NCBI GenBank assembly: GCA_003971905.1
Contig: RSEE01000039.1
Span: forward strand, 62,001-126,000
Source: Moniliella sp. 'wahieum'
Taxonomy: Eukaryota
Reading direction: 5' to 3'
DNA: 64,000 nucleotides
Part shown: one piece after another, positions 15,674-56,200 of the stretch
Layout of the letters: each line of letters starts with the position of its first letter
Position numbering within the stretch: the stretch's first letter is position 1
Notes under the pieces: model-generated
Told to the model about the DNA's origin: nothing
Database searches by the model: none
The model's input: the letters and a program-made list of their open reading frames with translations, nothing else
Made by a program: the position numbers and the translations under genes

Positions 15674-17504
15674 CTACTCAAAGGACAGGACGGGACGAGC
15701 CGAGGTATAACCGCTTCGGTCCGACATTTTCTTGTCATCTTGCGACGGCACTTCGTACACCTCTTCCTCCTCCAGACCCAGTTCCTTGGGGTCGTACCCG
15801 TGTTCGCGCAGATAGGCAATAAACGCTGCGTCCTCCTTCTTCATCCCGTCTTGTACGACGGGCGGGATAAAGAGATAGGTGATCGCAGCGCTGAACAGAG
15901 CCAAGCCACCGCAATGTAGAACGGACCCGAGTACTTCAGAATGGGATTGTACTTGGCCATGGCCTTTTTGATGTCGGGGTACACATACGACCCTACAAAC
16001 GCCGATCTGGAACCCAAACCAATCACCTGGTCAGCAACTTTCATCATGTCGAGAGGGAAGGGAGAGGATTGGAGGAATGCGTACCTTGCCTACCGCTGCA
16101 GCGACACCATATGCTACCCGCGGACACACGGGGGCGACCGCCTTGGAGGCGAGCAAACCGAGGTTGTTCCCTGGACCCAGTTCGCCCAAGGCAAGGAAGC
16201 AGCCCAACACGAGGATGAAGCCGGCAATGGGTTTTGGAGGAAAGAGTACCCGCCAGCCAAACGCAAAGGCTGATTGCATGACCAAGCCCAGATCATGCAG
16301 TTCTGGCCCCAGCCGCTCCCCACAAACATGGCCCCAATCAGGGTGCCAGGCAAAAAAAACATTGATGAGTGTGGTCCATCCCAGGACCTTGTACAGACTT
16401 TGCTGTCCATCGGACCGGGCTTGACAACAGAAAGAGAATCTGGCTAATGTACAGACCAGTGGGGTAGGTGACCCAGTCGTACGACCACCATGCAAGGCAG
16501 AGCGCAGTGAGCGGACTCCGTAGCGCTTGATGATCAGCCACCATGGCAGCTTGGACCATTTGATGTGATACTTGGTGTACGCCTCCGTTTCCTTCATCTG
16601 GAAGCGGAAGAGGAGCACAGTCAAGGGAGGGACGGCGCCCAAGCCGAGCGAAACACGCCAGACGGTGGTCAGCTGTCCGGGGGAGGTCCCACCAGCGATC
16701 CAAAGGATGATGAGCGGGACAAAGGCCGCGACAACAAAGCCAAAGTCAATAGCGCAGTTGGTGCCAAGGAAAAGTACATTTGTTGCCGGTTCTTCTTGAC
16801 GCCTTCCTGCTCGGTGTTTTCCGAGGCAGCGACCGAGCCTGGGTACTCGGCTCCAATACCAATACCAATCAGGAAACGGTACGCAATCAGGGCATCAAAC
16901 AAGCCGCCAAGCGCATGGTTGCCCGTGGCGGGCGAGCCGCCTGCGCCCCACGCGCCAGCAGAGAGGATGGATATAATGGTAAGCCAGATCGAAGCAAAGA
17001 GCATAGCGCCCTTGCGCCCAGTCAAGTCGACCGCCACGCCAAACACAAGCATGCCCAGCACGGTGCCGGCAAAGGCGAGGGACGAGAAGAGTTGACTGAA
17101 ATTAGCGACACGCGGGTCGTCAGGGTAGAGATAGGTCTGGGTGGGTACCTGTGTTAGCCAACAGCTGTCCAGGAGGGGAAGGCGATAGGGAGGGGGGGGG
17201 GGGGGGCACGTACTGTAATGACCGTGTTGGTCGCACCCGACACGGCGTTCACATAGCTTTACGGAGGAAAAGAAAATAATGCACCGTCAGCAGTCAGGCG
17301 ACGGGGCAGAGGGGGATGGTAAGGGGGGACGTACCCATCTGAGAAGAGGGCGCTGCCACTGGCAAAGACGGCGCCGAGCTGGCCGACTTGGAACATGCGC
17401 TTGTAGAGTGGGTCGCGGCGGGGGGCGTCGGCCTCATGAGGGGTGGTGACCAAGTCATCGACGGGCAAGTCGGGCGAGGAGCGCGAGGCGCGCTTGAAGA
17501 GCAT
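15674..17504 (-). CDS. GIT1: MFS glycerophosphodiester/phosphate permease (Git1-like), frameshifted in the assembly
   Basis: VFASGSALFSDGY|VNAVSG, GTVLGMLVFG..D..GRK, YRFLIGIGIGAEYPGSVAASE, LGELGPGNNLGLLASK and AYGVAAAVGK; several short introns. Confidence 0.88.
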
Positions 17505-24068: not shown

Positions 24069-25716
24069 ATGAGCGCCAGGTACAGCCAGCTCCCCACTGA
24101 CGCCAGTGACGACACGCCCACGCCGCGGCTCTTTCCGCCCCGTCTTCCGCCGCCGCGCTGGCGGCCGCCCAGTCCGACCCGCCCGAACCCGACGACGAGG
24201 ACGGCCTTACGGGCGCCGAGGCGACCGATGCATGGCAGGAAATGACGCCTCTCGCCCGCTTGGGCATCTACATTGCGTTTGGATTGCTGGGTGCCGGCGT
24301 GCTTCTTCCCTTGTACGTGCTTTCGCAGTGATCTCCTGAGCCAGCGGCAAGGCAGGCTAACTGGGACCGTTGGTCGCTGCAGCAACGTGGTCATTACCCC
24401 CGTCCGAGTACTACCGTACGCGCTTTGCCGACACGCCCTTTGCCCATAACTTTGCCAACTGGCTCATTGTGAGCTACAACTGCACGGCCATCTTTTTCCA
24501 AGGAGCGGCGACCAAGTCGCTGCCCAAGACCACCCCGTCCAAGCGGATCGGACGGTCGGGAGTGCTGCTGCTGTTCTGCTTCTTGGCCTTCACTCTCATC
24601 ACCGCCCTTGGGCCGGGCAACACTCCGGACCCCGAGGTAGACACGCGAGGTGCGGACCTGTTCTACTTTGGTGCGCTTTTGGTCTGGGCCAATACCCTGG
24701 CCGCCGGCTGCAGTTACTTCCAAAACGCCGTGGTCGCGCTCAGTTCGGCGTTTGGCCCACTTTGTATGGCACGATGCTTTCGTTCCAGGGCATCATTGCG
24801 GTGGTTGTGTCGGTGATCCAATTGGTGGCGGCTGTCTCCTTTGTCCGCTCTCACCCGCCTGCTAACGATACGGCAGGAGTGCAATCTGTCGATGCTGAAT
24901 CCAGCCACCATTGTGTTTTTCGTGATTTCCGTCATGCTGATGAGCGTGGTTCTGATCGCCTTCCGTCTGCTGATTCAGACCGACCTGTTTTGGGAAGTGC
25001 ATTACAAAGAAGCTGGCTCCTCCTCTTGGGCCCGGGTGGACGGGGAGGAGCATGCGGAAGAGCATGACGGTGCGTCGTGGGCTCTCTTGGGTCGTCTGGG
25101 CAAAAAAGTATGGTACTTTTGTTTGGCCATGGTACTCAACTTTGTCGTTACCCTTGCTCTCTTCCCTACGGTTACAAGTCGCGTCCTCCACTTCGCCCAA
25201 GGGAACGCTACTCGGTTCTCCGCTCGTTTTTGCCTCGCTCCATTTCTTCCTGTTCAACTTGAGCGATGTAGTCGGTCGCACGCTACCTTCCTTCCTTCCC
25301 TCCAGCTGGCTTCCCTCACGCCCAGCGTCGGTACTGGTCTTTGCCTTGGCCCGGGTCTTGTTTGTCCCGCTCTTCCAGCATGCCCACACGGGAGGTGCCG
25401 TGGCCGCTTTCTCCGCTCCCGCCCTTAGCGTCCAGGACCAAGGACTGGGCAATGCCACATCTCTCTCCTGGCGCCACGGGCGGTGATGGGAGCGACGCCG
25501 ACGCCTCCCTTTTTGCAGCAAGACTGGGTCTTCTTTACGGTGCTCTTCCTCTTTGGTGCATCGAACGGGTACCTGATCACCAGCCTGTTTGTCTCCACTC
25601 CTTCCCACCCTGGGCTCGATGCCGAGGAAAAACGCTTGGCCGCCTCGGTGCTGAGCTTTTGGTTGGCGATTGGCCTGGCGCTGGGAAGCGCCTTCTCGTT
25701 TGTGGTGGACAAGTAA
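24069..25716 (+). CDS. Equilibrative nucleoside transporter (ENT/Fun26 family), frameshifted in the assembly
   Basis: YIAFGLLGAGVLLP|NVVIT..YYRTRF, SYFQNAVVALSSAFGP, QGIIAVVVS, FVVTLALFPTVT, FGASNGY and GLALGSAFSF. Confidence 0.9.
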
Positions 25717-28691: not shown

Positions 28692-29161
28692 GCTGCTGGT
28701 GCGGTGCGCTCCCAGGCCGGCGCGGTGGCGGTGGTGGAGGTGGTGGTGGGCTCGGGCTCAGCAGGACTGCGGGCAAGGCGGAACGCGACGGGCATTGAAT
28801 ATTGATGGCGGCCGGCTGGCTCGGGATGTGTGATTTGTGATTCCGGCCGGTGATGGGATGGGATGGGATGGGACGGGACCAGCGCCCATTTTTTCCTCAT
28901 TAAAGCACACACCAGCCCCCCCGCACTCTCGCCACACCACCATCCGCGCTCCCCGCATCCGTCCCATCCCCACCCGCATGGCCAGCTCTCTAGAGGCGCC
29001 CCGCACCGGCAGCCCCGCGCGGCTCCATGGTCGTACACGCTTCTCTCTCCTCCTCCTCGTCCGGACGATCCCTGCTTCGGCGAGCTGCTGCATGGGCGCC
29101 GCATCCCGCTTAAGTGCCCATCCCCGCAGGACGCAGTGGCACTGTTTTGCCGCTAGACCTC

Positions 29162-30561
29162 ATGGACAGCTCCCAACGTACGCAGCTTGTGTCGGAAATG
29201 ATGCAGCGCTACAAGGACCTGCTCCACTTACCACATGCAGCCTATGCTGCTGCGCTTGATGACTGGCACCTCTCCATCGTCCGGCTCAGAGCGGCGCTTG
29301 GCGGGGAGGCGGTAGAGGGGGAGCTACTCGTACCAGGCTCTTTGAGCAGAACCGCTTCCCATCCCATATCTCACAGCGCATCCATGCCCCGAAAGGAGGC
29401 TCCACTTCCCGGTCAAGCCCCAATTTTTCGCTTCAATCCTCCCCTTCCTCCTCCCACAACCCAAGTCGCGGGTCCTTCCCTTCCAGCTTCTTGGGTCTGC
29501 CACGTTCCATCCTCAACTTCCCCTAATTTCTTCAAGTTTCCGCCTAACGCCCATCCTCCCTCCTCAAACCCCACTCAGATCGCGCCCAACTCTTCGTCCT
29601 CATCCTCAAACATATTTTCCTTCAACGCCCCTTCAACGACCTCAAACTTGTTCCAGTTTCCGTCCAACCCCTCCTCAAATTCTACCAAGCTCGCACCCAG
29701 CGCTCCGTCATCGTCGTCAAACATATTTCCCTTCAAGGCCCCTTCAACGACCTCCAACATATTTTCCTTCAACGCCCCTTCAACGACCTCAAACTTGTTC
29801 CCGCTTCCGTCCAGCCTCTCCTCAAGCTCCACCCAACTCGCACCCAGCGCTCCGTCATCATCACCAAACATATTTCCCTTCAAGGCCCCTTCAACGACCT
29901 CAAACATATTTTCCTTCAACGTCCCTTCAAGGTCCTCAAACGTGTTCCAATTTCCATCCAACTTCTCATCCTCAAACTCCACCCAGCTTCTGTCCTCGCC
30001 CTCAACATATTTCCTTTCAAAGCCCCTTCAACGTCCTCAAACGTCTTTCAGTTTCCGTCCAATGCTCATCCCCCTTCGTCAAACCCCCCCGCTCGCACGT
30101 AACGCTTCTTCCTCGTCTGTAACCCTTTTTCAATTAGCACGCCCCTCTACTTTCATGTCATCCGTCACTCCCACTCCATCACCATCAATTCTCCCTGGGC
30201 CCCCCCCTCGCTTCCAATTCAGTCTTCCCACTCAACCGAACATCCCTCCACGGCGTACCCACCCCCTTCCGCATCCAGTTTTCATCCTTGTTTTTCCCCC
30301 GAGACGAGACGCGCCCCTCATTCGAGCAACCCCCACTGCTTCAGGCATGAACTTGGAGAACGTGTATCCGTGGCGAATCACCAACATACGGAGCATGGAC
30401 GCCAAATGGATGCAAACAGAATTTACGATGCTGTTGGACTCGTCCGACACGGTGCACCCACGCAAATTCGAGAAGGTTACCGACGACTTGAGCAAACGCG
30501 ATGCTGGATGAAATCGCTCGCCTCGCTCCTCTCGGTGCTAACGGTTGGTATACTTTTGTGA
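29162..30561 (+). CDS. Orphan Ser/Pro-rich protein with internal FxF repeats
   Basis: About 450 codons open from ATG 29162; helical-looking N-terminus, repeated SNIFSFNAPSTT/SNLFQFP/SNIFPFKAP units and a short non-repetitive C-terminus. Confidence 0.6.
29605..30065 (+). repeat. 147-bp (49-codon) tandem repeat, about 3 copies, built from 36-bp sub-repeats
   Basis: ctc[a/c]aacatattttccttcaacg recurs at about 29605, 29752 and 29899. Confidence 0.88.
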
Positions 30562-31136: not shown

Positions 31137-31227
31137 TGCTTCAAAGGGGAATCGAACCCCTGTCACATCGATCTCACAGGCACTAGGCCAGTCTGGCAAC
31201 GATTATATACCACTAACCCATTGAAGC
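31137..31227 (-). tRNA. tRNA-Gly(GCC) with a 22-nt intron; D-arm imperfect
   Basis: Acceptor stem GCTTCAA/TTGAAGC; A-box TGGGTTAGTGG; anticodon loop TTGCCA (GCC at 31197-31195); intron 31193-31172; T-arm AGGGG-TTCGATT-CCCCT. Confidence 0.8.
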
Positions 31228-32873: not shown

Positions 32874-34066
32874 AATTGCAAAGGATAATACGCACAACAA
32901 GTAATGCTAATTATATGATGCGAGTTCTTGATTCGGGCCTCATGCAGTCTGTTGTCGTTAGAAGGTGTAAAGTCATTTGCACAGAGAGCATTGTATGCGA
33001 TATCTCCTTGTACAAAAGATGGGGGTGGGGATGAAGGACAAGAGAAGAGAAGAGAAATGAAACAGGCCACTGTGTTTTGCCCTTAACATATCACGCTAAT
33101 TGACCCTCGTATTGGGTTCCTCTTTTTGAGAATAAGATATCATCATCATGTCAATTCTCTCCGAGTGGTGCCTATGTTTTCTCCGAGCAGGTGGCGATTG
33201 CATCTGTCTCTCATCTGTTCACCTGATCATACCTCATGGCTGCGGCCTCCGCGCCTGAGCCACAGAGTCCCGTAAACCAGCCCCGCTCATCCTAAAAGAA
33301 GGCCCCCCCACGCTCGGTGCTTGTCTCCCGCAATGCCACACCGAGCTGTTGCCTCCCGCCACTGAGGGAATGCAGTCAACGCCGCTGCCAACACCACCAT
33401 CACCATTACAATCGGTCATGAATACGTTTGGACTGTGAAGATACCCACGCCGCTCACATGATGACACGATCCTTGTTGACGGGAAAACCCCTCCCGGAGG
33501 CTGCTCAGCTTATAGCTCTATAGCCCTCGCCTAAAAGCACACCCCCACCGATGGTGTTCACGAGAATGGCGGGCACACCCCGAAACGTGGTTCACAATGC
33601 ACAAAACATGCTGCATTCCATGACTATAACCGTTTTGCACACAGGTTTTATCTGACCCACCCCTGCCCCGCGGCGACGCTCTAATCCCTTTTGGTTCCAC
33701 GCCTGGTTGAAGAACGTGTTTGATGCGACTCATATTGGGATTGTACCGCGAAACATGCTTCAGCTTTTCAGGGCAAGACCATTAATCAAGTACTGTGCAA
33801 AGCTTCATGAAAGAAAGCTCACTGTGGACATCACAGATGACACGATTCTCATCTTCGTCGAGAATACCTCCTCACACACTGCATCAGCAACGACACATGA
33901 CAGAGGAGTGTATGACAATAGTATTTGTATATTTCGAGACCCGCAGGGAAGGCACAGGGATCCCAGGGTGTGGCCACCCACTCCGCACTACGAGATACTC
34001 CCGCTAGACGTGTGTCATATAGGCTAACCGGCCGTTGGCTGCCATCACCTTCAGCCGCAACGCTTA

Positions 34067-34925
34067 TGTTACGGGCGCTCCGGCTATCTCCGGACGCTGA
34101 GCCCCGCATGTCGTAGACATCTCAGCCCAACGTGCGTCAGTTCGGTTATAGACTAGCGAGAGAGCCAGTCGACACCTTATCCTTGCTGCGGATATCCTCC
34201 GCGGCCCCCATGGCCGCATGGTCTTATCGGTACGATGCTTTGTGCCTATTGCGTCCAGTCTTGTCAGAACCCTTCCTGCTGCGCCCGACTGCGCTGCGTT
34301 AGCACCGTGGGAAGCAAGGGCTGTGCATTAGTCTTCTTTACCTTTCTGGGAAGTGCCCGCATTCTGTCCATACCTGTCATGAGCACTTGAGGCCCGGTTC
34401 CCTCTGCTGTAATAAGCAGCCATGTCTAAGGCTTGCTAGCTGTGGTCCTTGTCGACCATCCTGTCTATTACCGTTGGTCTCCCCGACTACCAGTTCCTCT
34501 CTCGCCCTTCCACCTTCTACCACCACCCTTACGCTTACGAATTTACGACTTACGTCGAGTGCACTGCAAGCCGCGCGGTTACTCACATCAGTAGCGCTTG
34601 CTCTTCTTTAGGACTCTGTCTGTTCCCGCCGCTACAGCGTACCGAGTGTGGGTAACGCGGCGAGGAACAGAGTAATTCCGGAGCTCCTGGACCCCTTCAG
34701 CTGGTCTAACGACCTACGTACACGGCTCCTACCTCGGAGGGTCTGGACTGCGGCCTTTGCACGCAGGCAGCCACCCAAACTAGAGGGTCTCTCCCTAGCC
34801 TCTACACCCGCTCGGTTCAACCAGGATCTGGAGCAGACCTAACGTACGAGCCACCGATTGATCTGTCCAAGGGTTTACACCCCTAAACTACAGGGGGGGT
34901 CCCACCTCGGGACCCCCCCATGACA
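34067..34925. mobile_element. Solo LTR, family A (859 bp)
   Basis: TGTTAC...ATGACA termini; 5-bp TSD GCTTA at 34062-34066 and 34926-34930; homologous along its length to 44661-45718. Confidence 0.92.
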
Positions 34926-35355: not shown

Positions 35356-38058
35356 TGTCTCGGACTCATCATCACCAGCAGGCAATCGGATCCTCGCCAC
35401 TAAACCCGTATGGGCACTATGGCGTGATTCTTATCAGTTGGGAGATCCTGTGTCCACCTCTCGACTGTGCCCCCTTCCTGAGGAGGTACATATACCTCCT
35501 CTGCGTCCATAGATGTATGCAATCCATCTGCGCCCTTTCCCCATCTCCGTATCCGACAGGTTAGATCCCACTCAGCCTTCCAGGCTCGCGAGCCCCCGGC
35601 GGACATCTCTCCTCGGCCTCGGCCGCCCTCCTCCCCGCCCCGATGTCCGCCCGTCCGCACGGCACACTGCCGCCGTGCGCTGACTTCTACCAGGACGCCT
35701 TGCAGGTCGGCGTCAGGCCCCTCACCCCCCCCCCCCCCCGTGGCCACTGGCCCCCCGCGGACCCCCTCCCCGCCACGGCGCGTGAGCCGGCCCCTTCCGT
35801 TCCGGAATCCCTACCCCTGGCCTGGCCGTGACCGACGCTCGCCCGCCCTCGTCACCGCCACTATTCAGGCCCTCCTCCCCTACCTCAACTTCCCCGCCCA
35901 CCCCACCCCTGCTGCCCGCCGCTCCGCCACTCCCCCCTGCCCCCACGGAGGCAACCCCCGCGGACGCCGCCTTCTCCGGCAGCAGTACTACCCCCTTCCT
36001 CCCGGACGTCATTGCCCCCAACACTGCCGCCGCCATTGCTGTTCCCCTCTCCCGGTCCAAGCACCCCGCCGCTGTTGGCCTCGCCTCACGTCCTCCCTCC
36101 TTACGGTCCGCCCTTTACTGCCCCCCTCATAGGGCATGTCCCGCGACGCTGCCAGCTCCGGCAGCCCCTCTTCTCCCCCATTTTTCCCCCCAATCGCGCC
36201 TCGGGATTTCGTTTCCCCTGCCGTTCATCTCGGCCACCTCGCGCGTTCCCCAAGAAAGCCACTGACGTCTTCGGTAGGCACCTCGGTGCCACTCCTCCCC
36301 CTATTACCAAGGCGCAAAATTGCTTCGCCCCTTTGCCCCGCAAGCCGCTGACCCGCTCGGTCGCTGCCCTGCTGTTCGGATGCCATTGTTGCACGCGTCA
36401 AGTTATGGCATGAACGTGCCATGCATCTTCCCGTTCACAAGCTTCCGGGGCTCACCGCGGCCCTCTCACCGCTGAGCGAGTTACGCACGATGACGTGCTC
36501 GCCGTGAAGGCCGCTGGCTGGCACTGCCCGGCGTGTGACTTAGTTCCCTCTGAACCAATGCCACCCTTGCCTCAGCTGGGCCTGCACCAGCCATTTCCCT
36601 TGCACACGCTTGCTGCTGACGTGTTCGACGACTTCGGCACCTCTCCCAGCGCAACGTGTGCTCTCATCGTCCAAGACCATGACTCGCGTTTCATCTGGTC
36701 TATCCCCCTCAAGTCCAAGACAGACGCCGCTGATGCACTGCAAGCCCACATTGAGTCTCTCGAGCAGCAATTCTCTCATCGCAACCTCAAGGTGGCCCAT
36801 TTGTGGACCACGAGCAGGACCGAGTTTGATCCTATCTCACCCTGGCTCCGCTCTCTGGGCATTCGGCACTGCCGGGCGACCGACGATGACCCTGCCGGCG
36901 TACTCAACCGCGTGCACCTATTGCTGAACAACCTTGTTCAAGCTGCATTGCCTGCCCTCTCCGCTGGCCCAACTTGCTGGCCTGCAGCTCTTGCTCAGGC
37001 CGCCACGGTCATCAACGCCTTGCCGCACCCGTCCTGCTCCAATGCCACCCCGCATCAGCGTATGTATGGCTGTTCTCTCGATGTTCCAGCCCTGCATCCC
37101 TTCGGCTGCCAGGCTCATGCCGAGGACATGAGCTCAGCTGCTATACATCTTGGCTTCAATTCGACGACGCGTCGGTGGCTTCTTCGCGTCTGCCGCAACG
37201 GTAAATGGACAACTACCGAGTCAAACAATGTCCGTTTCCAGGAAAACGACTATGGCCCCCTGTGGTCGCTTCCTCTCCCGCGCCTCCTCTTGCCCCGTTC
37301 ATCGCAGAGGACTGCTCAAGTGGGAAACCCAAAGCCTAGCGCCCGTCGCCTCCCTCGGCGGCGCGCTACCCCTCATCCACCATCGATGCCGACATGCACA
37401 TTCCTCCTGCCCCTGCGGGACGCCGCTACCGCTTGAGGAAAATGAGAGGACCGCGCTTGGCTACGCCTCCAGCGTCACCAAGTGCAACTCCAAGCATGCG
37501 GGCCAAGACACACACTTTCCCGTCGCCTTGCATTCTCTCTTTGTTTTCTTATTTGGCTTTGTCGCATCATTGTCGCTAAGTCGTCCGCATCGCCCTCGCT
37601 TGCGACGTCTGCGCCTTCATCGTACCCACATCCGGTACAAAGAGACGAACGCCGGTATGCTTCCTCTCAGGTCCAGCCCTTCCGACCTGACATGCGCATT
37701 GTTCTTTCTCTTCTTTCCTTTTCCCTTTTCTCACCCTGATCTCTGTTCCTTTGGTTCGGTGGGAGGTGACTTGTCCACTCGTTACCATCGACTTCGTCCT
37801 CTGTTTCACGAGTTGGCCATCGTTGAAGGAGACCCAAAGGTGTCCACAGGATCGGTGGGAGTGTCAGACTCACGCCGTGCTAGGGGCTCCTTGGCCACTA
37901 GACCCGTATGGGCACTATGGCGTGATTCTTATCAGTTGGGAGATCCTGTGTCCACCTCTCGACTGCTGCCCCTTCCTGAGGAGGTACATATACCTCCTCT
38001 GCGTCCATAGATGTATGCAATCCATCTGCGCCCTTTCCCCCATCTCCGTATCCTGACA
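35356..38058 (+). mobile_element. Non-autonomous Ty1/copia-derived LTR element (about 2.7 kb)
   Basis: LTRs of about 200 bp at 35356-35558 and 37862-38058 (TG..CA, near-identical over the 3' 165 bp); PBS-like GGTTAGATCCC at 35559; purine-rich GGATCGGTGGGAG before the 3' LTR; internal integrase ORF; no full RT; no TSD. Confidence 0.88.
36403..37436 (+). CDS. Copia-type integrase homologue, predicted catalytically inactive
   Basis: LWHERAMH..CPAC zinc-binding module (one frameshift); rve core LAADVF..IVQDHDSRFIWSIPLKSKTDA..LRSLGIRH..WPAALAQAATVINALP..TPHQRMYG..LHPFGC; C-terminal IHLGF..ESNNVRFQE. Confidence 0.82.
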
Positions 38059-41000: not shown

Positions 41001-41060
41001 TTGCCATCTGCGGGAACAGCACTCAGATTGCCGCCTGCTCTATCCGCTTCTACCACAGCC

Positions 41061-43655
41061 ATGCCTCCATCTGGTGCTGCTGACGCTGCGGCGAGCGCTC
41101 TCGCCGGTGTATCCACCGTCACGCCAACTCCAAGCCAGGTTACTGAAGTGAACTACGGGCGTGTGCCCGTATACGAGGCAAAGGTGGGCAACATTGCGTG
41201 CATGCGCCGGAAAACCGATGGATACTTGAACGCGACCCAGATCCTGAAAGCTGCTGGACTGGGGCCTAACGAGTGGAAGGGTATACTGAAAAAGCTCATC
41301 CTCACTTGCAAGTATGACAGGGTGAAGGGCAGCCCCATCCAGTGCCAGGGCACATGGATTCCGCTTGGCCCTGCAGTCCAGCTGGCACTTCAGCACAATG
41401 TTGCCCATCAACTCCAAATGCTTCTAGGGTTTGATTGGCCTCCACCAGAAACAACGCGCAACGTTGTTGTGGAGGTTGCCCCGCCGCCACCACCACCACC
41501 ACCTGTCACACCCACATCCACGCCTACGCTCTCAGTTCCTCGGGGTTTCCCTATCGCCTCTGTCGAACCTGGCTCACACCCCCTCACCGCCGCTCTCGCT
41601 GCGTCACAGGGCACCGAACCGGGAATAACCCGTCTCCGCCGCGATGCACGCTTTGCTGCCGTCTGCCAATCCCTCTCGGCTTTCCGGCCACTCCTCGGGT
41701 CTGCCACCATGTCACCGTGGCAACTGGAACAGGATTGGTGAATGGATCGGCTGTGCGCACAGCCGAGATAATTCGCCTGCTGATGCGCTTCCTCACTCCG
41801 GAACCGTCTCGTCTGAAACATGGCTCAGCACCCTGCGGGCTGAATACGAGCGCCGTATGCCTTCGCATTCTGCTTGGCTCAGATCGGACGAGCACCCACG
41901 CACGTTTGCCTCCCTGTCCCGTCCCATTCAACTAGGAATCCTTCATGATGTCACTTCCTGGATCTCCGAAACGCCCGACTGCCTCCATACGGTGACTGAG
42001 GAAAGTCTTGTTCAACACGAGCAAAACGACCCTATAGGGTCTGATCGGAACGGGAACACGTACTACCCAATTGGCACGCGCTTATGGGTACTCTATGCCC
42101 ATTGGGGAAGCCCCAGCAGCCAACGGAAGCGGAGGCACCAGGAGACTCAGAGGACTCAGAGGACTCAGAGGACTTGGAGGATCCTGTGAAGGGGGTGCAT
42201 CTTCCTGAATTACTACGACCACTCGAGTCGGAGCCGTCGTCAGAAACCCGGCTCATTCACCAACCAAGATGGAAATGGTGTCCTCACAACAGGCACCTAA
42301 CCCCTGGCCCCATCAAGATTCGAATGCAGTGAGGATGGTGGGGAAGACACATATTCTGATGCCCTACTGACTCAGCAGGGCCGTCCGTCGACGGACGCCT
42401 ACTCATCCAAGTGTGATGACGGTATCGTCGTTGATCCTCCCCCTGCAGAGCAAGGGACGGCGATACCCTCTCGTTCACATATGCCGTGCCCGGAGGCAAT
42501 GTTGAGTCCTGAGCACCATGTTGGTCCGGACGCCAACGATATGGTGCCAGGAGCACAGTCGGAAGTGGAAACGGCGTGCTGCACTCTCATGCCGACGCGG
42601 AAAAGCTCGCACAGTTCCAGCAATGGGACAAACAGTACGCATTGGATACTGCAGCGCTCGAAGCTCCACTCGAGGGGAGTGTGGAAATGGAGGTGGTCTG
42701 CTGCGCACGGTCCGAGTGGGAAGCCTTCTTTTCCGCCCTTTGCCCACCAAGGAAGAAAAAAGGCAAGAGGAGGAGGAAGCAACACCCGGACGAGGTGGCC
42801 ATGTTCACATGTTTGTCCGCGCGCTTGGACAAAATATTAGCGGATGTGGATGTCCAAGCCAAGGCCGAGAAAATGGAGGCAAATCAAGCCCGCGCTCAAC
42901 TCATGGAGCTTTTCCAGGGCACGGAAGCGATCTTGCCGCACCGTGGCTCAAGAGCAAATGCGGGTTGAAGACCAAGACAAAGGGAGGTGGATACTACGCT
43001 TGAATCCAGGAGGAAGAAGGCCCGGAGCGCAGGCCAGGACGGAGAAAAGGAGGGCGCTGCAAGTGACCCAGGCTAAGAAGGAGAGGGCCCTACAGCAGAC
43101 TTCGGCCAAAAAGGAGCGAGCGGCAGCCCAGCGCAAGTGGTTGAAGGCGTGGCGGGCAACTAGAGGCGAACAAAGGAAGGCGGTGCTGTAAGACCATGGC
43201 AATATTGCCAGGGAGATCCCGCTCATTTCCTGGACCCGATAAGCCAGAAGCTAGAGCAGCCCACACCGAGGGATCCCACTGCATCGCTCGCTTCTAAACC
43301 CAAGTCAGCGGCGACAACAGCACCAAGAATGGTGACCTATGACTGTGAGGTCTGTGGCCGCACGGGACAGTTTTCCCTCGATGTTCGAAAGTGGCCGATG
43401 CTAGAGTGCGCCGTGGTGTGGCATCAGGCAGCATACCCGCTGCTGGAACAACTATCTAATTCGTCAAAATGTTTCTCCGATCAACTGGCGTGCCAACGCC
43501 TTTTATTGTACACGTCATCGTCCCGAGGCCCTCCGAAAGCGCGACGGCGGTGTTCCGGAACTCCCCGAGGAGGAACTGCGAAAGAGGCGAAGCGCCAAAC
43601 GCTTACTGTATATGGATCGGCGCCGTCAAAAAATGCGCGCCGATATGCTCCGTGA
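41061..43655 (+). CDS. APSES (Mbp1/Swi4-type KilA-N) domain fused to a DDT/WHIM1-WSD-PHD module; frameshifted, 3' end approximate
   Basis: APSES: VYEAKVGNIACMRRKTDGYLNATQILKAAG..QGTWIPL..A.QLA. In the same ORF: LRRDARFAAVCQSLSAFRPLLG..LEQD. Then ETWLSTLRAEYERR..FASLSRPIQLGILHDVTSW, PIGSDRNGNTYY..RLW, EVVCCARSEWEAF..HPDEVAMF, a coiled coil and YDCEVCGRTG..MLEC..VWH. Confidence 0.75.
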
Positions 43656-44660
43656 TCAGGCCACCGATGCTCTACCGCTTCCTCAGAAGCAGTTGTCAAC
43701 GAGGGGTTCCAAATTTGTGACCCCCCCTCCGTCCGCTCAAGATATGTTCTCGCCATTGCGTTGTCGGAGGATCTTACTCCATCCCCCTCCCCTTCTCCGT
43801 CATCCTCCATGGACTGCACACTTCCCGTGCCACATGATGTCCAAACACCGACGGCATAGAGCCACATGCGTTTGGCAGCATCGCGTGAAGGGTGTGATAA
43901 GGGTACACGCCTAGCTCCTCCTCCCCCTTCCTCCAAGTTACGTGCGACATTCGTGAAGAAGGCCGCTTCACCTGTCCGCAACTTCACGTGGAGGAACATA
44001 CCATGAAGTCGCTAAAATCACAAGTTGTGAGAACCCCTACCACCCTACCCGTGGTATGTTCCTTATGTGCTTTCGAAGCCAAAGTTCTCTGAAATGCCCC
44101 CTATGGCCACTGTCCACCGAATTCACCTTCCCCCCCCCTCCATAATGTCTACCGCGTGCTCTTTCACCTCGTCGATCAGTTTCAATCCTTGTCGGTCTAT
44201 ATGCGGCGGTGGTTCGCAGGATTGTGATGGTGTTACCGGTTGTGGTTACACCCGCATTATGGTCGGAACAAAATGGCTTGCGGGTAGCGGTGGATGGGAT
44301 AAAACTGAAACCATCCACAAACCCCCCGTGAGCGCTGAGCAGACCAAACCTTCGTGAATAAACAAGGCATCACCAGTCTCGAGATCCACCGTGTCCATCC
44401 GTATAGCGCGTCACTCGTCGCGCTTCCGACATCCGAACCGGATGGGGTATGTCCGTGGCGAGAATTTCAGACCGTTTCCTGACCTGGCTGCGTACTCTCT
44501 CACTTAGTATATCAACGATATGAAAATCGATGAGAGCGGCACGAACGAAGATTGTGCGAGAAGCTTTCGTGGGCGAATAGTCTCTGGATACTGTATCGGG
44601 TTGTAATAGTCCGGCTGATCTCGTCATCCTAATTTCCAATTTCTTCGTCTCGAGCGTTTC

Positions 44661-45718
44661 TGTTACGATGCATCCGGTTATCTTCTGACGCTGAGCCCCG
44701 CATGTCGAAGACATCTCAGCCCAATACACGTCAGTCTGTTTTAGACTAGCGAGAGAGAGCCAGTCGACACCTTATCCTGCTGCGCGGATATCATCCGTCG
44801 CCCGCCATGCCGTCGATGGGCTCATTGGTACACGATGCTTTGTGCCCATTGCACCCAGTTAGTGACAGAACCCTTCCTGCTGTGCCCGACTATACGCACC
44901 GTCAGTGACTTTCAGCGCATGGGCTGTGCATTTTTAGTCTTAATCTCTCAGGAAAAAGTGCCCCGCATTCTGTCACAGTCGGGGCTAAGGCGAGGGAGAC
45001 CAGGATCGGACTAGGCCAAGGGGGGTGTAGCAATCGTTCGTGGGGAAGAAACAAGAACAGAGGACATGGTGCGAAGTGGAAGGAACAGGGAAGGAGCGAG
45101 ACGCTCGAGACGAAGGAAGAAATTGGAAATGGGAGCGAGATCAGCCAAACTATGACACATTCCGTCTATATCTGTCATGCATCATGCACATCATGGGGCA
45201 CTTGAGGCCTGGTTTCTTCTGTTGTAGAGAAGCAGCCATGTCTAGGCTTGCTGGCTGTGGTCCTTGTTGACCATCCTCTGTCTTTGGTCTGCCCGACTAC
45301 CCGTTCCTCTCTCGCTCTTCCACCTTCTATACCACTGCCCTTATACGCTTATTACGAAATTCCGACTTACGTCGAGTACACTGCAAGCCGCGGTTACCCT
45401 CATCAGTGGCGCTTTTGCTCTTCTTTAGGACTCTGTCTTCTGTTCCCGCCCACTATACAGCGTACAGAGCATGGTAACGCGAGCTCCTGGGCCCCTTCAA
45501 CTGGTCTAACGACCTACGTACGCGGCTCCTACCTCGGACTGTCTGAGCTGCCGCCTTTGCACGCAGGCAGCCACCCAAACTAGACAGTCTCTCCTCTTAC
45601 CGCTCGGTTCAACCAGGATCTGAAGCAGGACCTAACGTACGAGACACCTATTGGCCTGTCCAAGGGTTTATACCCCAAACTACAGGGGGAGTCCCATCTC
45701 GGGACCCCCCCTATGATA
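44661..45718. mobile_element. Second, diverged copy of LTR family A, interrupted by a nested LTR
   Basis: TGTTACG start; shared blocks with 34067-34925 (gacgctgagccccgcatgtcg, gactagcgagagag, ctggtctaacgacctacgta, gctcggttcaaccaggatctg); ends ATGATA; no TSD. Confidence 0.9.
44971..45157. mobile_element. Nested short solo LTR, family C (187 bp)
   Basis: TGTCA...TGACA termini; TSD CATTC at 44966-44970 and 45158-45162; absent at the equivalent site of the 34067-34925 copy. Confidence 0.9.
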
Positions 45719-53222: not shown

Positions 53223-56200
53223 ATGGCTGATCCTGACGCGGTTGCCCAGCTCCTCGCCCAGACCCTCGACGCCGACACGGGCCTCGCTCCCATGCCGAGG
53301 CCCAGCTGCAGCACCGCAAGGCCAGCGACGGCCTCTTTGGCCCTGCTCTCGTCCAGGTCGCTGCCACCCCGGCCGTCCCACTGCCCATCCGCCAAGCCGC
53401 TTCCTTGCTTCTGCGCCAGGTTGTCGATGCCACCTGGTCTCCTCTCGGCGCCAACTACACAGGCGTAAACGGCGAGGCCATGCCCGCCGCGGCCAAGGCC
53501 CAAGTTCGCGCCACCCTCCTTGAGCTCCTGCTCTCTGACGAGCGCAAACTTCGACTCGCCTCGGCCCTCACGCTCAGCCACGTGGCCAGCACCGACTTCC
53601 CCGACCAGATCCCCGAGCTCCTGCCTGTCCTCATTTCCGCACTTGATCCAGCCAATGTTACCCCGCACAAGGCTCATGGCGCCCTCGTCTTCCTGTCCGA
53701 GTTTGCCCGTTCCGAGTTGGACGAGCACCAGCTCCTCCACCTTACCGATCAGCTTCTCCCCAGTCTCGAGGCCATCGTCTCATCGCCCCAAGGCATCGAT
53801 GCCCACCTACAGGCCCGCGCTGTTGTCTGGTGCGTCAGATGCTCGAGGCTACCTACTTGATCCGGGAACAGTTCCCTCAAGCGGCCCAGACGGCGCTTGA
53901 GACTGTGCTCCCCCGTTGGATCCCAGCCCTTCTCCAGCTCGTGCGGCAAGGCGAGCAGGGCTTGCATGCACTCGCCACGAGCGCCCAGGGAATCGAAACA
54001 TGGGAACAGCTTGCACTCACTGCCGAGGCGCTGCGCACGCTTCAGCTGGCCTCGCATGTCAAGCCTGTGTTCAAATCGCACGTGTCGGACGTGGTCGTTG
54101 CCTCCCTCGCTGTTACCCGCGCTGCCGCACAGGCTTTGGAAACCTACGAAACCAGCCCCTCGGCAGAGGGGAGCCGGCTGACTTCCCCCCCGAAGGCGAT
54201 GGGGACATTGCTTCCTCCCTCCCGGGTGTGGCGATGCAGCGGTGGAGACGGCCAGCGCGCTTCTCCGCGCGTACCACAAGACGGTCTCCAACCTGCTCCA
54301 ATCTTCTCCGCCCGGTCAGGAAGGTGGCATCTCCCTCCTCGGCTCCTGGGTCGAAAGTTTGACCCAACTTGCGATGGTGACCAACGAGCAAGAGGAGGAA
54401 TGGTCTGTCGACATCAACGCCTTTGTCGCCGAGCTTGACGAGGCCGATGGCGGAGGTGCCATCTTTGCTGGCACGGAATCCTTGCGCGCCACTGGGCTCG
54501 AGACCGTGTCGGACCTATTGGAGGTGATTCCGGACGCAAGTGTCAAAGCATTGGTACGCGCTGTGCCGGCGCGCGTGGCCGTCGGAGAGGCGTACCGCGC
54601 TCAAGGGCGATCAGATTGGTGGAAACCGATTGAGGCTATCCTGCTCCTCTTGGGAGGCAACGGAGACCTGCTCGCTGAAACGCCGGCGTTTGAACTGGAA
54701 AAAACGTTTGATCTGGCCGTGGCGCCGTATGTGCAAAATGCCCCGCCTCTTTTGACCGCCCAAACGTTCCTCTTTGCCTCCCAGTTTGCCGCCGCCTTGC
54801 CCCTCAGCATCTCTCTTCAGTTCCTTAACGCGGCCACCCTCACTCTGGGCGGCAGCGATGCGATTGCGACGGCCGCCGCGACGCGGACCGTGCGCAACTT
54901 TTATCGTCACTTTGCCTCCTCTACCACGCCACCTGAAGCCAGCGAGTGTGCGCCGACTCTCCTGGGCCACCTGGGCCGTCTGTTGCAAAGCACCCAGACT
55001 GCTGAACAAAGTGACACGAGCGTTCTGGTTCTGGAGGCCGTGCAGGCTGTTGGCGTCGCTGCGCTCTCCTCGGTAGTGTCAGCGCTGCTGAAGCGTCCGC
55101 GCTGGCCGAGGGCGTGGTGCACACCTTCCTGGCCCAGCGAGACGATCCGGTAGTGAGCTCGGTGGCGAGGATGTGTTGGAGGCGTTTGTGTCCCAGGTGC
55201 AAGCGCCGGCGGATGTGGCCATTCTCAGTGCTGCATTCCCCTTGTTGGCTGGGTACGTGGTGCGCCCGACCGAGGCCGAGGTGCAGCTGGAAGGCAGTAT
55301 CGAGGGGGCGACCAAGGAGGACATGGGACGCTGGGCTACGCGGGCGGCAGCTACTCTGGCATGTGTTGATGCGTTGCTGCGTGCGGCTCAGCCCGATGCA
55401 CTGCTACAGGTCCAAGCTGCCTCCACACTTCTCCCCGCCCTGGTGGGTGCCTGGGCTGAGTTGGGACAAGACCGGGACGTGCAGCAGGCGCTCGTCCAGA
55501 GCCTCACCTACCTCATTGGCAAGGCGCCCGAACCCACACTGGCCTGGAACGGGCTTCCCATCACCCTTGCGCCTAGCGCTGCCACCTCGACACGCGCCTT
55601 CCTTGCTCCCGTGCTCACGGCCTTGCTCGACCCCGAGGACACGCTCGAGACGGCCGGGTTGGCGCTTGGGCCGTTCCTTTGTGCCCTGATCCGGAGGGAG
55701 AAGGGCATGCTCCAACAGAGCAGCGAGCTGCTCCGTGCCCTCGTCTCTCGCCTCAAGGCAGCCAAGACAGCATCCTTAACCCACGGCATCCTCGTGCCCC
55801 TTCTCTACCTGATTGCCGGCCCGACGCTGGTGTGCCCGCCGGACCCGATGCGCTGGCTGTGCTCGCTGCGCTGGACTTGGGTGACGGGACAGGGCTGCAG
55901 CTCGTGGCGGAACGCTGGATGCAAGAGACGGGATCGCTGCATGGCGTCTGGGCACGCAAGGTGAACGCCCTGGCGCTGCTGCGTCTGCTGCGGGAGGGAG
56001 GGGATCTGCTACTGACGCTACCTGTACGGGGGAAGTGCTACCGACAGGAGGCAAGATTGTAACGCGTTCCATGGCCAAGGCCAACACACTCTACCGCTCC
56101 GTGCCGCTTGCTGTGGGTGCGCTGATGGGGTGCTGGACGAGTGGGAGTCGGCAGGCCAGGAGCCCGAGGCGGAGGAGGTCGACGAGGACGGGTGGGACGA

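Follow-up and report, generated by a model that had tools for sequence, protein, structure and literature searches.

An APSES domain joined in frame to a DDT/WHIM-PHD module in Moniliella sp. 'wahieum': a lineage-specific chimeric gene, probably now a pseudogene

The genome of the fungus Moniliella sp. 'wahieum' contains, within a stretch of 64,000 nucleotides (GenBank assembly GCA_003971905.1, contig RSEE01000039.1, positions 62,001 to 126,000 of the forward strand; here called the window, with coordinates counted from its first letter), a plus-strand locus beginning at 41061 in which the coding sequence of an APSES DNA-binding domain runs into that of a putative chromatin module. Judged from its sequence, the locus is a true chimera, an APSES domain of the SBF/MBF type and a DDT/WHIM plus PHD module having been joined in one frame. 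We consider it probable that this lineage-specific chimeric gene is now a pseudogene; its present-day product would be, at most, a 226-residue APSES-plus-stub protein.

The upstream half is an open reading frame (ORF) of 226 codons, uninterrupted as an earlier sequence-only reading of the locus had stated, in a frame that is open from 40866. A complete APSES domain occupies approximately residues 21-132, beginning some 21-25 codons past the ATG. The sequence-only reading had called this domain Mbp1/Swi4-type, and database comparisons agree: BLASTP of the ORF against the protein P0003 gave 49% identity over 134 residues (E 5e-32), and 94 longer proteins match the APSES part at E <= 0.001 (top match 2.9e-24), the similarities ranging over 49-55% identity across 102-134 residues with E values of 2.9e-24 to 5e-32. 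Pfam KilA-N scored 22.3 bits on the window piece, just under the cut-off of 23.8. In a tree of the window copy and the 45 best of the 94 relatives, the window copy falls within a clade of seven Ustilaginomycotina-like rows (Shimodaira-Hasegawa-like approximate likelihood-ratio test, SH-aLRT, 97), on an end branch of 2.65 compared with a median of 0.044. An altered wing had also been noticed, and it holds up against a broader sample: the wing reads VKGSPIQCQGTW, which differs from the 12-letter consensus of the 94 relatives, and the region of helix B plus wing (..EWKGILKKLILTCKYDRVKGSPIQCQGTW) does not keep the conserved helix B/wing pattern. Among the 44 columns of at least 90% conservation, the window copy keeps 24, while each of the 94 relatives keeps at least 35 (median 44).

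One paper names four KilA-N subfamilies in fungi, SBF/MBF, APSES, Xbp1 and Bqt4 (PMC4862756). Like the SBF/MBF-type proteins (Mbp1, Swi4, Swi6, Res1/2 and Cdc10), the window copy has a complete APSES domain and groups inside that subfamily; unlike them it has a replaced wing, retains only 24 of the 44 near-invariant positions, is followed by a chromatin module at its C-terminal side, and is without ankyrin repeats. The last point had been claimed from inspection and stands: Pfam detected no ankyrin repeat in eight translated pieces of the locus, and tblastn with four ankyrin-bearing relatives (P0002-P0005) matched only the APSES part, at 41004-41435, although ankyrin families are listed in 93 of the 94 APSES relatives. 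By tblastn, then, only the APSES-coding part of the parental APSES gene was copied.

The junction lies inside the intact ORF. A run of eight prolines is followed in the same frame by ..PGSHPLTAALA..ITRLRRDARFAAVCQ.., homologous to the N-terminus of P0097, a member of the family that contributed the downstream half; the first conserved family helix within the ORF, RLRRDARFAAVCQ, aligns with RLRRDWRFAAVCQ in P0097, in line with the poly-proline linker leading into a DDT-like helix that had been read from the letters. APSES homology stops near 41456 and family homology starts between 41505 and 41619, leaving a gap of approximately 90-160 nt between the two within one ORF, and the family half is joined in frame about 10 residues from the family gene's native N-terminus. 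Native family N-termini begin approximately 45-70 residues ahead of the first conserved helix, and most of this stretch is retained after the proline tract; the APSES domain was therefore added N-terminally and no domain was replaced.

The identity of the downstream half comes from a conserved but largely unannotated family. An exhaustive phmmer search over 1.84 billion representatives with the 104-residue WHIM-like piece returned two proteins, P0097 (1195 residues, 2.6e-16) and P0098 (503 residues, 3.3e-4), and a search seeded with P0097 added P0099 (Ceraceosorus), P0100 (Sporisorium), P0101 (Kalmanozyma), P0102 (Jaapia) and P0103 (Tilletia); a word-indexed search with the WHIM-like piece among longer proteins gave no match. 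By tblastn the family homology in the window reaches a summed E of 1.2e-27. The WHIM1, WSD-like and PHD-like motifs that had been noted downstream (PIGSDRNGNTYY..RLW, EVVCCARSEWEAF and the PHD cysteines) are present and homologous to the P0097 family, but in frames other than that of the intact ORF. In a family tree the window part is sister to P0097 (support 100/100), with branches of 1.22 and 0.11, respectively, and it retains 19 of 31 family-invariant columns. On their alignments, both halves of the locus have evolved abnormally fast.

Pfam recognizes this family poorly outside its PHD finger, which scores above the cut-off in four of five named relatives. DDT, WHIM1 and WSD gave no match on the window pieces even at E <= 10 and exceeded their cut-offs in no family member; below threshold, P0097 scored 22.5 for WSD (cut-off 25.4) and P0099 scored 16.8 for WSD and 13.9 for WHIM1, in the correct order. 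A family profile compared with PDB sequences likewise found PHD fingers only (best 1wee, 9e-5) and no DDT/WHIM entry. Fold comparison, made on the homologues P0098 and P0099 rather than on the window copy, was more informative. An AlphaFold model of P0098, built from an alignment of nine sequences, is confident at residues 30-200 and 260-400, and when compared with 48,161 PDB representatives it ranked 2y9z_B first (Z 8.6, root-mean-square deviation (rmsd) 6.9, 239 residues aligned), the sole chain with Z >= 8. We take chain B of 2y9z to be Ioc3, the ISW1a protein used to define the WHIM motif. For the P0099 model the same chain came at rank 11 (Z 6.9, rmsd 11.8), level with matches to CH domains, and Foldseek against the PDB returned nothing at E <= 0.001 for either model. 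Residues 55-235 of P0099 have ten structural neighbours in the ESM Atlas (template modelling (TM) scores 0.51-0.83); six of the ten neighbour clusters carry DDT, WHIM1 or WSD (TM 0.65-0.80) and others are named as RSF1 or PHD proteins. Because of the Ioc3 structure match and the Atlas neighbours, the assignment of DDT/WHIM/WSD plus PHD is supported for the family: as modelled, it is an Ioc3/RSF1-like DDT/WHIM scaffold with a PHD finger, at fold level and below Pfam thresholds. The description of the module as ISWI-partner-like is thus upheld through the fold of its homologues.

A study of Neurospora recovered WHIM and PHD proteins together with ISWI on purification (PMC9038196). Compared with Ioc3 of yeast ISW1a, RSF1 and the Neurospora proteins IAF-1 and IAF-2, the homologous family has a predicted Ioc3-like fold, and with RSF1 it shares the order of a helical DDT/WHIM part, a beta-strand WSD motif, a coiled coil and a PHD finger. 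It differs in that no member has Pfam DDT, WHIM1 or WSD above the cut-off, in that the window copy is frame-shifted, and in that an association with ISWI would be by analogy. Eleven metagenome loci (L001-L011) encode compact family relatives of approximately 480-500 residues, so that the family reaches beyond the named basidiomycetes; L001-L003 gave no PHD match by tblastn.

The sequence-only reading had not recognized the combination of domains from any described protein, and wider searches bear this out. PHD, DDT, WHIM1 or WSD is listed in none of the 94 longer APSES relatives, KilA-N in none of the seven family proteins, and an APSES match at E <= 1e-3 in none of the 11 metagenome loci, where the upstream flank available was 4 kb in eight and 2.6, 1.7 and 0.2 kb in the other three. 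The six members of the P0097 cluster have 1149 or 1195 residues, lengths that leave no space for an added domain. The 226-residue ORF was absent from the protein collection in an exact look-up, a metagenome scan with it gave 208 pattern matches and no relatives, and no APSES plus DDT/WHIM architecture appeared in the literature as searched by title, abstract and term occurrence. A DNA-binding domain placed ahead of a DDT/WHIM scaffold is a recurring arrangement, represented by WAC in Acf1/Itc1 and by the homeodomain-DDT proteins of plants. The chimera resembles these in having a DNA-binding head in front of the scaffold; it differs in that the head is an APSES domain, a pairing not found in the 94 plus 7 proteins or the 11 loci. 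As read from the sequence, APSES-DDT/WHIM-PHD would therefore be a new combination, not found elsewhere, within a known theme of DNA-binding heads on DDT/WHIM scaffolds.

Table 1. Coordinates of the chimeric locus, its homology blocks and the flanking repeat features in the window.
Feature	Position	Strand	Basis or remark
Intact ORF, frame 3, 226 codons	41061..41741	+	ATG, APSES domain, proline tract, first DDT-like helix; terminal TGA is the product of the first frame shift
APSES (KilA-N superfamily) domain, SBF/MBF type, rewritten wing VKGSPIQCQGTW	41121..41456	+	Sequence similarity, tree; Pfam KilA-N below cut-off
Junction: proline-rich low-complexity linker between both parental homologies	41457..41549	+	BLASTP, frame-aware alignment
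Block 1, frame 3: family N-terminus and first DDT-like helix RLRRDARFAAVCQ	41550..41735	+	tblastn, alignment
Block 2, frame 2: second DDT-like helix AEIIRLLMRFLT	41738..41811	+	Alignment; shift at ~41736-41738
Perfect 5-bp tandem duplication (CGTCT, CGTCT), in the 23-nt interval of the frame 2 to 1 change	41805..41814	+	Sequence
Block 3, frame 1: WHIM1-like helices and WSD-type strand motif PIGSDRNGNTYYPIGTRLW	41815..42096	+	phmmer, tblastn, alignment
Unconserved acidic/basic linker	42097..42614	+	No frame open throughout; 3 shifts, or 2 stops and 1 shift, required
Perfect 9-bp microsatellite GACTCAGAG x 3.4, in linker	42144..42174	+	One frame encodes SEDSEDSED
Block 4, frame 3: second conserved family module SVEMEVVCCARSEWEAF...	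42615..42890	+	tblastn, alignment
Block 5, frame 1: family KRSSR motif (RKRSCR) and charged coiled coil	42892..43188	+	Alignment
Block 6, frame 3: PHD finger, first half (CEVC ... EC)	43329..43415	+	Alignment
Block 7, frame 1: PHD finger, second half (CGIRQHTRCW ... FYCTRH) and basic tail	43417..43680	+	Frame open to 43914
Direct repeat, left copy	34061..34923	+	78-81% identical to right copy
Direct repeat, right copy, ~200 bp longer	44655..45716	+	78-81% identical to left copy
Copia-type retrotransposon integrase relic, 340-codon ORF, between repeat copies	36414..37436	+	Strand shared with the locus

Beyond the first DDT-like helix the gene is broken. By tblastn and frame-aware alignment, homology to P0097 continues in seven contiguous blocks, in frames 3-2-1-3-1-3-1 and with no intron-sized gaps (Table 1). 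Six frame changes are thus anchored by homology. The linker between blocks 3 and 4 is open in no frame, for which reason the ORF map demands at least eight disruptions in total. The frame-aware alignment itself gave 17 frame changes, but only the six between conserved blocks were counted, the others lying in unconserved linkers where they may be scoring artefacts. A single extra G at 43416 splits the PHD finger, and its eight zinc ligands (CEVC..C..C....H..C..C..H) are present only if the finger is read across this base; Pfam PHD matched neither half. One of the changes falls at a 5-bp tandem duplication, a kind of site that occurs 1.8 times per kb in the window and would be expected inside the 23-nt interval by chance with a probability of approximately 0.03-0.04, while two of the shifts other than this one lie outside homopolymers longer than 2. 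Related loci are not disrupted in this way: in L011 the corresponding region is a single 503-codon ORF, and relatives read it in one frame only, or in two that are separated by a gap of intron size. Introns were considered as a cause of the shifts and rejected, because homology crosses the shift points (that in frame 2 continues across the first) and because the sole GT..AG pair at the first shift encloses no more than 25 nt; other introns in the window appear to be approximately 42-85 nt long.

We regard these shifts as probably real lesions, a view that rests on comparing the locus with its surroundings and its relatives. Complete Pfam profiles are found in single ORFs elsewhere in the window for Atg8 (104 of 104 positions), RhoGDI (190/193), the EF-1 beta exchange domain (87/88) and the importin-beta N domain (73/73), as is the E2-binding domain (the C-terminal part of UBA3), and several further ORFs run to 417-470 codons. 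Each of these conserved domains is thus carried in a single ORF, so the shifts do not reflect general assembly noise. G+C content at third codon positions (GC3) is 0.57-0.69 in all pieces of the locus, including 0.58 in the intact ORF, against 0.69-0.80 in housekeeping genes and a regional G+C of approximately 0.56. The setting also fits decay, with relics of an integrase and of a sugar transporter in the neighbourhood. The earlier proposal of a functional fusion that could direct nucleosome remodelling is, unlike the anatomy on which it was based, not supported by the sequence as assembled: six anchored shifts, one of them at a 5-bp tandem duplication, in a window whose other conserved genes read cleanly, together with the loss from both halves of residues otherwise kept in their families, point to frameshifts that are probably real.

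The history that we favour, that of a chimeric gene which has since decayed, can be outlined as follows. An Mbp1/Swi4/Swi6-type (SBF/MBF) gene would have supplied a copy of its APSES domain, minus the ankyrin part, and this copy would have been fused in frame at the very N-terminus of the recipient, a paralogue of a conserved basidiomycete gene whose product has a DDT/WHIM scaffold like that of Ioc3 or RSF1, then a coiled coil and, after it, a PHD finger. By analogy with described remodellers, the scaffold would dock on the ISWI ATPase and measure linker DNA, and the PHD finger would read a histone tail; the intact product may accordingly have resembled an ISWI accessory subunit with a sequence-specific DNA-binding head, comparable to WAC in Acf1/Itc1. 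Because both halves show approximately 50% protein divergence without a stop, the fusion was probably under selection for most of its history, its frame kept open as that of a working, rapidly changing gene, and broke recently.

Several observations weigh against the shifts being real lesions, and most of them also favour the alternative that the fusion gene is intact and alive, its shifts being local assembly indels. On that account, which we judge unlikely, a fast-evolving APSES-DDT/WHIM-PHD protein of approximately 900 residues might anchor a remodeller of the ISWI type at altered DNA sites. Neither the 488 block codons nor the 226 codons of the ORF, 714 alignable codons together, contain an in-frame stop, despite the protein divergence of about 50%. 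In a neutral simulation at 5% divergence, the blocks stayed free of stops with a probability of 0.05 and the ORF with one of 0.37; at 10% these probabilities fell to 0.004 and 0.13. The values come from a simple model and would be softened by G+C-biased substitution. Frameshifts without nonsense mutations are also the pattern of indel-type assembly errors, and several of the shifts could each stem from a single base (41736-41738, 43416). Read across its shift, the PHD finger still has its eight zinc ligands, and many family invariants survive, the 19 of 31 retained being no worse than in the divergent P0098 (which keeps 31 of the 56 columns that are invariant in the other six proteins). Furthermore, a conserved nucleoside-transporter (ENT) gene in the window has a lone +1 shift in an otherwise good match, which could be a sporadic assembly indel or a recent lesion and indicates that one or the other occurs in this window. 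On the other side, approximately 2.7 kb of coding sequence verified by Pfam in other parts of the window is free of shifts, and an error rate of at least six per 2.2 kb would therefore need to be strictly local; the 5-bp tandem duplication and the two shifts outside homopolymers longer than 2 also speak against this account, and neither the relaxed GC3 nor the changes in the wing and at 20 of 44 near-invariant APSES positions suggest a gene in use. A related possibility, likewise doubtful, is a gene that works or worked until very recently, combining the DDT/WHIM-PHD scaffold with a rewired-wing APSES head; its shifts would then be errors of the assembly, or lesions peculiar to this strain in a clade-specific gene that is conserved otherwise.

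Two further explanations were weighed. Two unrelated gene fragments may have been thrown together, for instance through capture by or rearrangement with the neighbouring retroelement, so that the shared frame would be accidental and the locus never a gene. Direct repeat copies do flank the locus, and a copia-type integrase relic that lies between them shares its strand; its APSES parent contributed no more than the APSES-coding piece, and no second example of the architecture was found. Yet the APSES piece is complete, starts shortly after an ATG and is joined in frame approximately 10 residues from the native N-terminus of the family; both halves are stop-free despite very long branches, which would be surprising in sequence that selection had never maintained (P ~0.007 for the APSES ORF alone, d = 0.3); and the stretch between the repeats yielded neither a reverse transcriptase nor any other transposon domain. 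We consider this account quite improbable. It is scarcely credible, in turn, that the first ORF alone is functional as a stand-alone APSES protein of 226 residues whose tail derives from a dead partner gene. That ORF is intact and has its ATG, and stand-alone APSES proteins are known (e.g., the StuA/Efg1 type and Xbp1), but its GC3 of 0.58 is as relaxed as that of the broken part, it has lost the DNA-contacting wing together with 20 of 44 near-invariant positions, and its stop codon was merely created by the first frame shift.

The chimeric locus and the integrase relic are bracketed by two direct repeat copies of 0.9-1.1 kb (Table 1). These are LTR-like (resembling long terminal repeats) and may be the LTRs of an element that carried the chimera; inspection by eye showed no clear TG..CA ends, primer-binding site or polypurine tract in them. 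The integrase ORF is still open though too diverged for Pfam rve, and matched SH3_retrovirus only at E 0.069, with Atlas feature scores of 0.92-0.96 to clusters carrying rve, gag_pre-integrs and SH3_retrovirus. It is itself flanked by 165-bp direct repeats (35396-35558 and 37894-38058), which lie 2.5 kb from each other and share 96% identity. Pfam detected no further transposon domain in 100 ORFs of at least 110 aa at 26.3-55.2 kb, or in 100 ORFs of 62-109 aa at 30.2-41.1 and 43.8-46.8 kb (across the window, some of the ORFs on the minus strand and at 55-64 kb were compared with Pfam); regular expressions for reverse transcriptase, protease and gag motifs matched nothing at 34.9-44.7 kb. The transposon-rich island of the sequence-only reading is thereby reduced to one copia-type integrase relic and two pairs of direct repeats, with no other transposon domain in the ORFs scanned. 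The island has no signature of repeat-induced point mutation (RIP) or CpG depletion.

G+C across the window is 52-65%, and the chimeric locus sits inside a gene-poor stretch of lower G+C. According to Pfam, housekeeping genes at 0.5-11 kb encode Atg8, RhoGDI, a UBA3-type E1, EF-1 beta and a Sad1/UNC protein, and an importin gene lies at 53-55 kb. The proteins most similar to the locus come from Ustilaginomycotina and further basidiomycetes (Ceraceosorus, Ustilago, Sporisorium, Kalmanozyma, Tilletia and Jaapia). The importin gene (53237-55150, plus strand) consists of three consecutive ORFs in one frame with single stops at 53858 and 54179, both inside apparent short introns (approximately 42 and 83 nt) with CTGAC-type branch sites. 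The ENT gene (24817-25713, plus strand) is composed of three ORF pieces; the junction near 25175-25180 corresponds to about one extra A between FPTVT and VASSTSPKG, and the second gap resembles an intron. The sugar-transporter (MFS) gene at 16.5-17.1 kb is a true relic, in which about 150 of 452 profile positions are left, with positions 48-123 and 142-198 matched in two frames (16574-17097, minus strand) and the remainder is unrecognisable. An ORF of 465 codons at 29114-30511 (plus strand), without a Pfam match, holds a 147-bp tandem repeat at 29604-30044 (2.6-3 copies, 63-91% identical) that encodes 49-residue repeats. An Rfam tRNA match of 91 nt at 31137-31227 (minus strand; 36.1 bits) is long enough to accommodate an intron; ARAGORN reported no tRNA in the window.

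Where and how ISWI remodellers space nucleosomes is believed to depend on DDT/WHIM accessory subunits, to which various DNA-binding heads have been recruited repeatedly. An APSES head on such a scaffold would be a new case, tying a fungal cell-cycle-type DNA-binding fold to remodelling, and if the gene did work, the fungus would possess a nucleosome-remodelling subunit directed by DNA sequence, a kind so far undescribed. As we read it, the locus is mainly a record of how a chimeric gene arose and died in a decaying region flanked by repeats, and it is of modest practical value unless there is an intact allele or orthologue. For the family that supplied its downstream half, a conserved basidiomycete PHD family mostly unannotated in Pfam, the analysis offers a model-supported annotation at fold level, as an Ioc3/RSF1-like DDT/WHIM scaffold.

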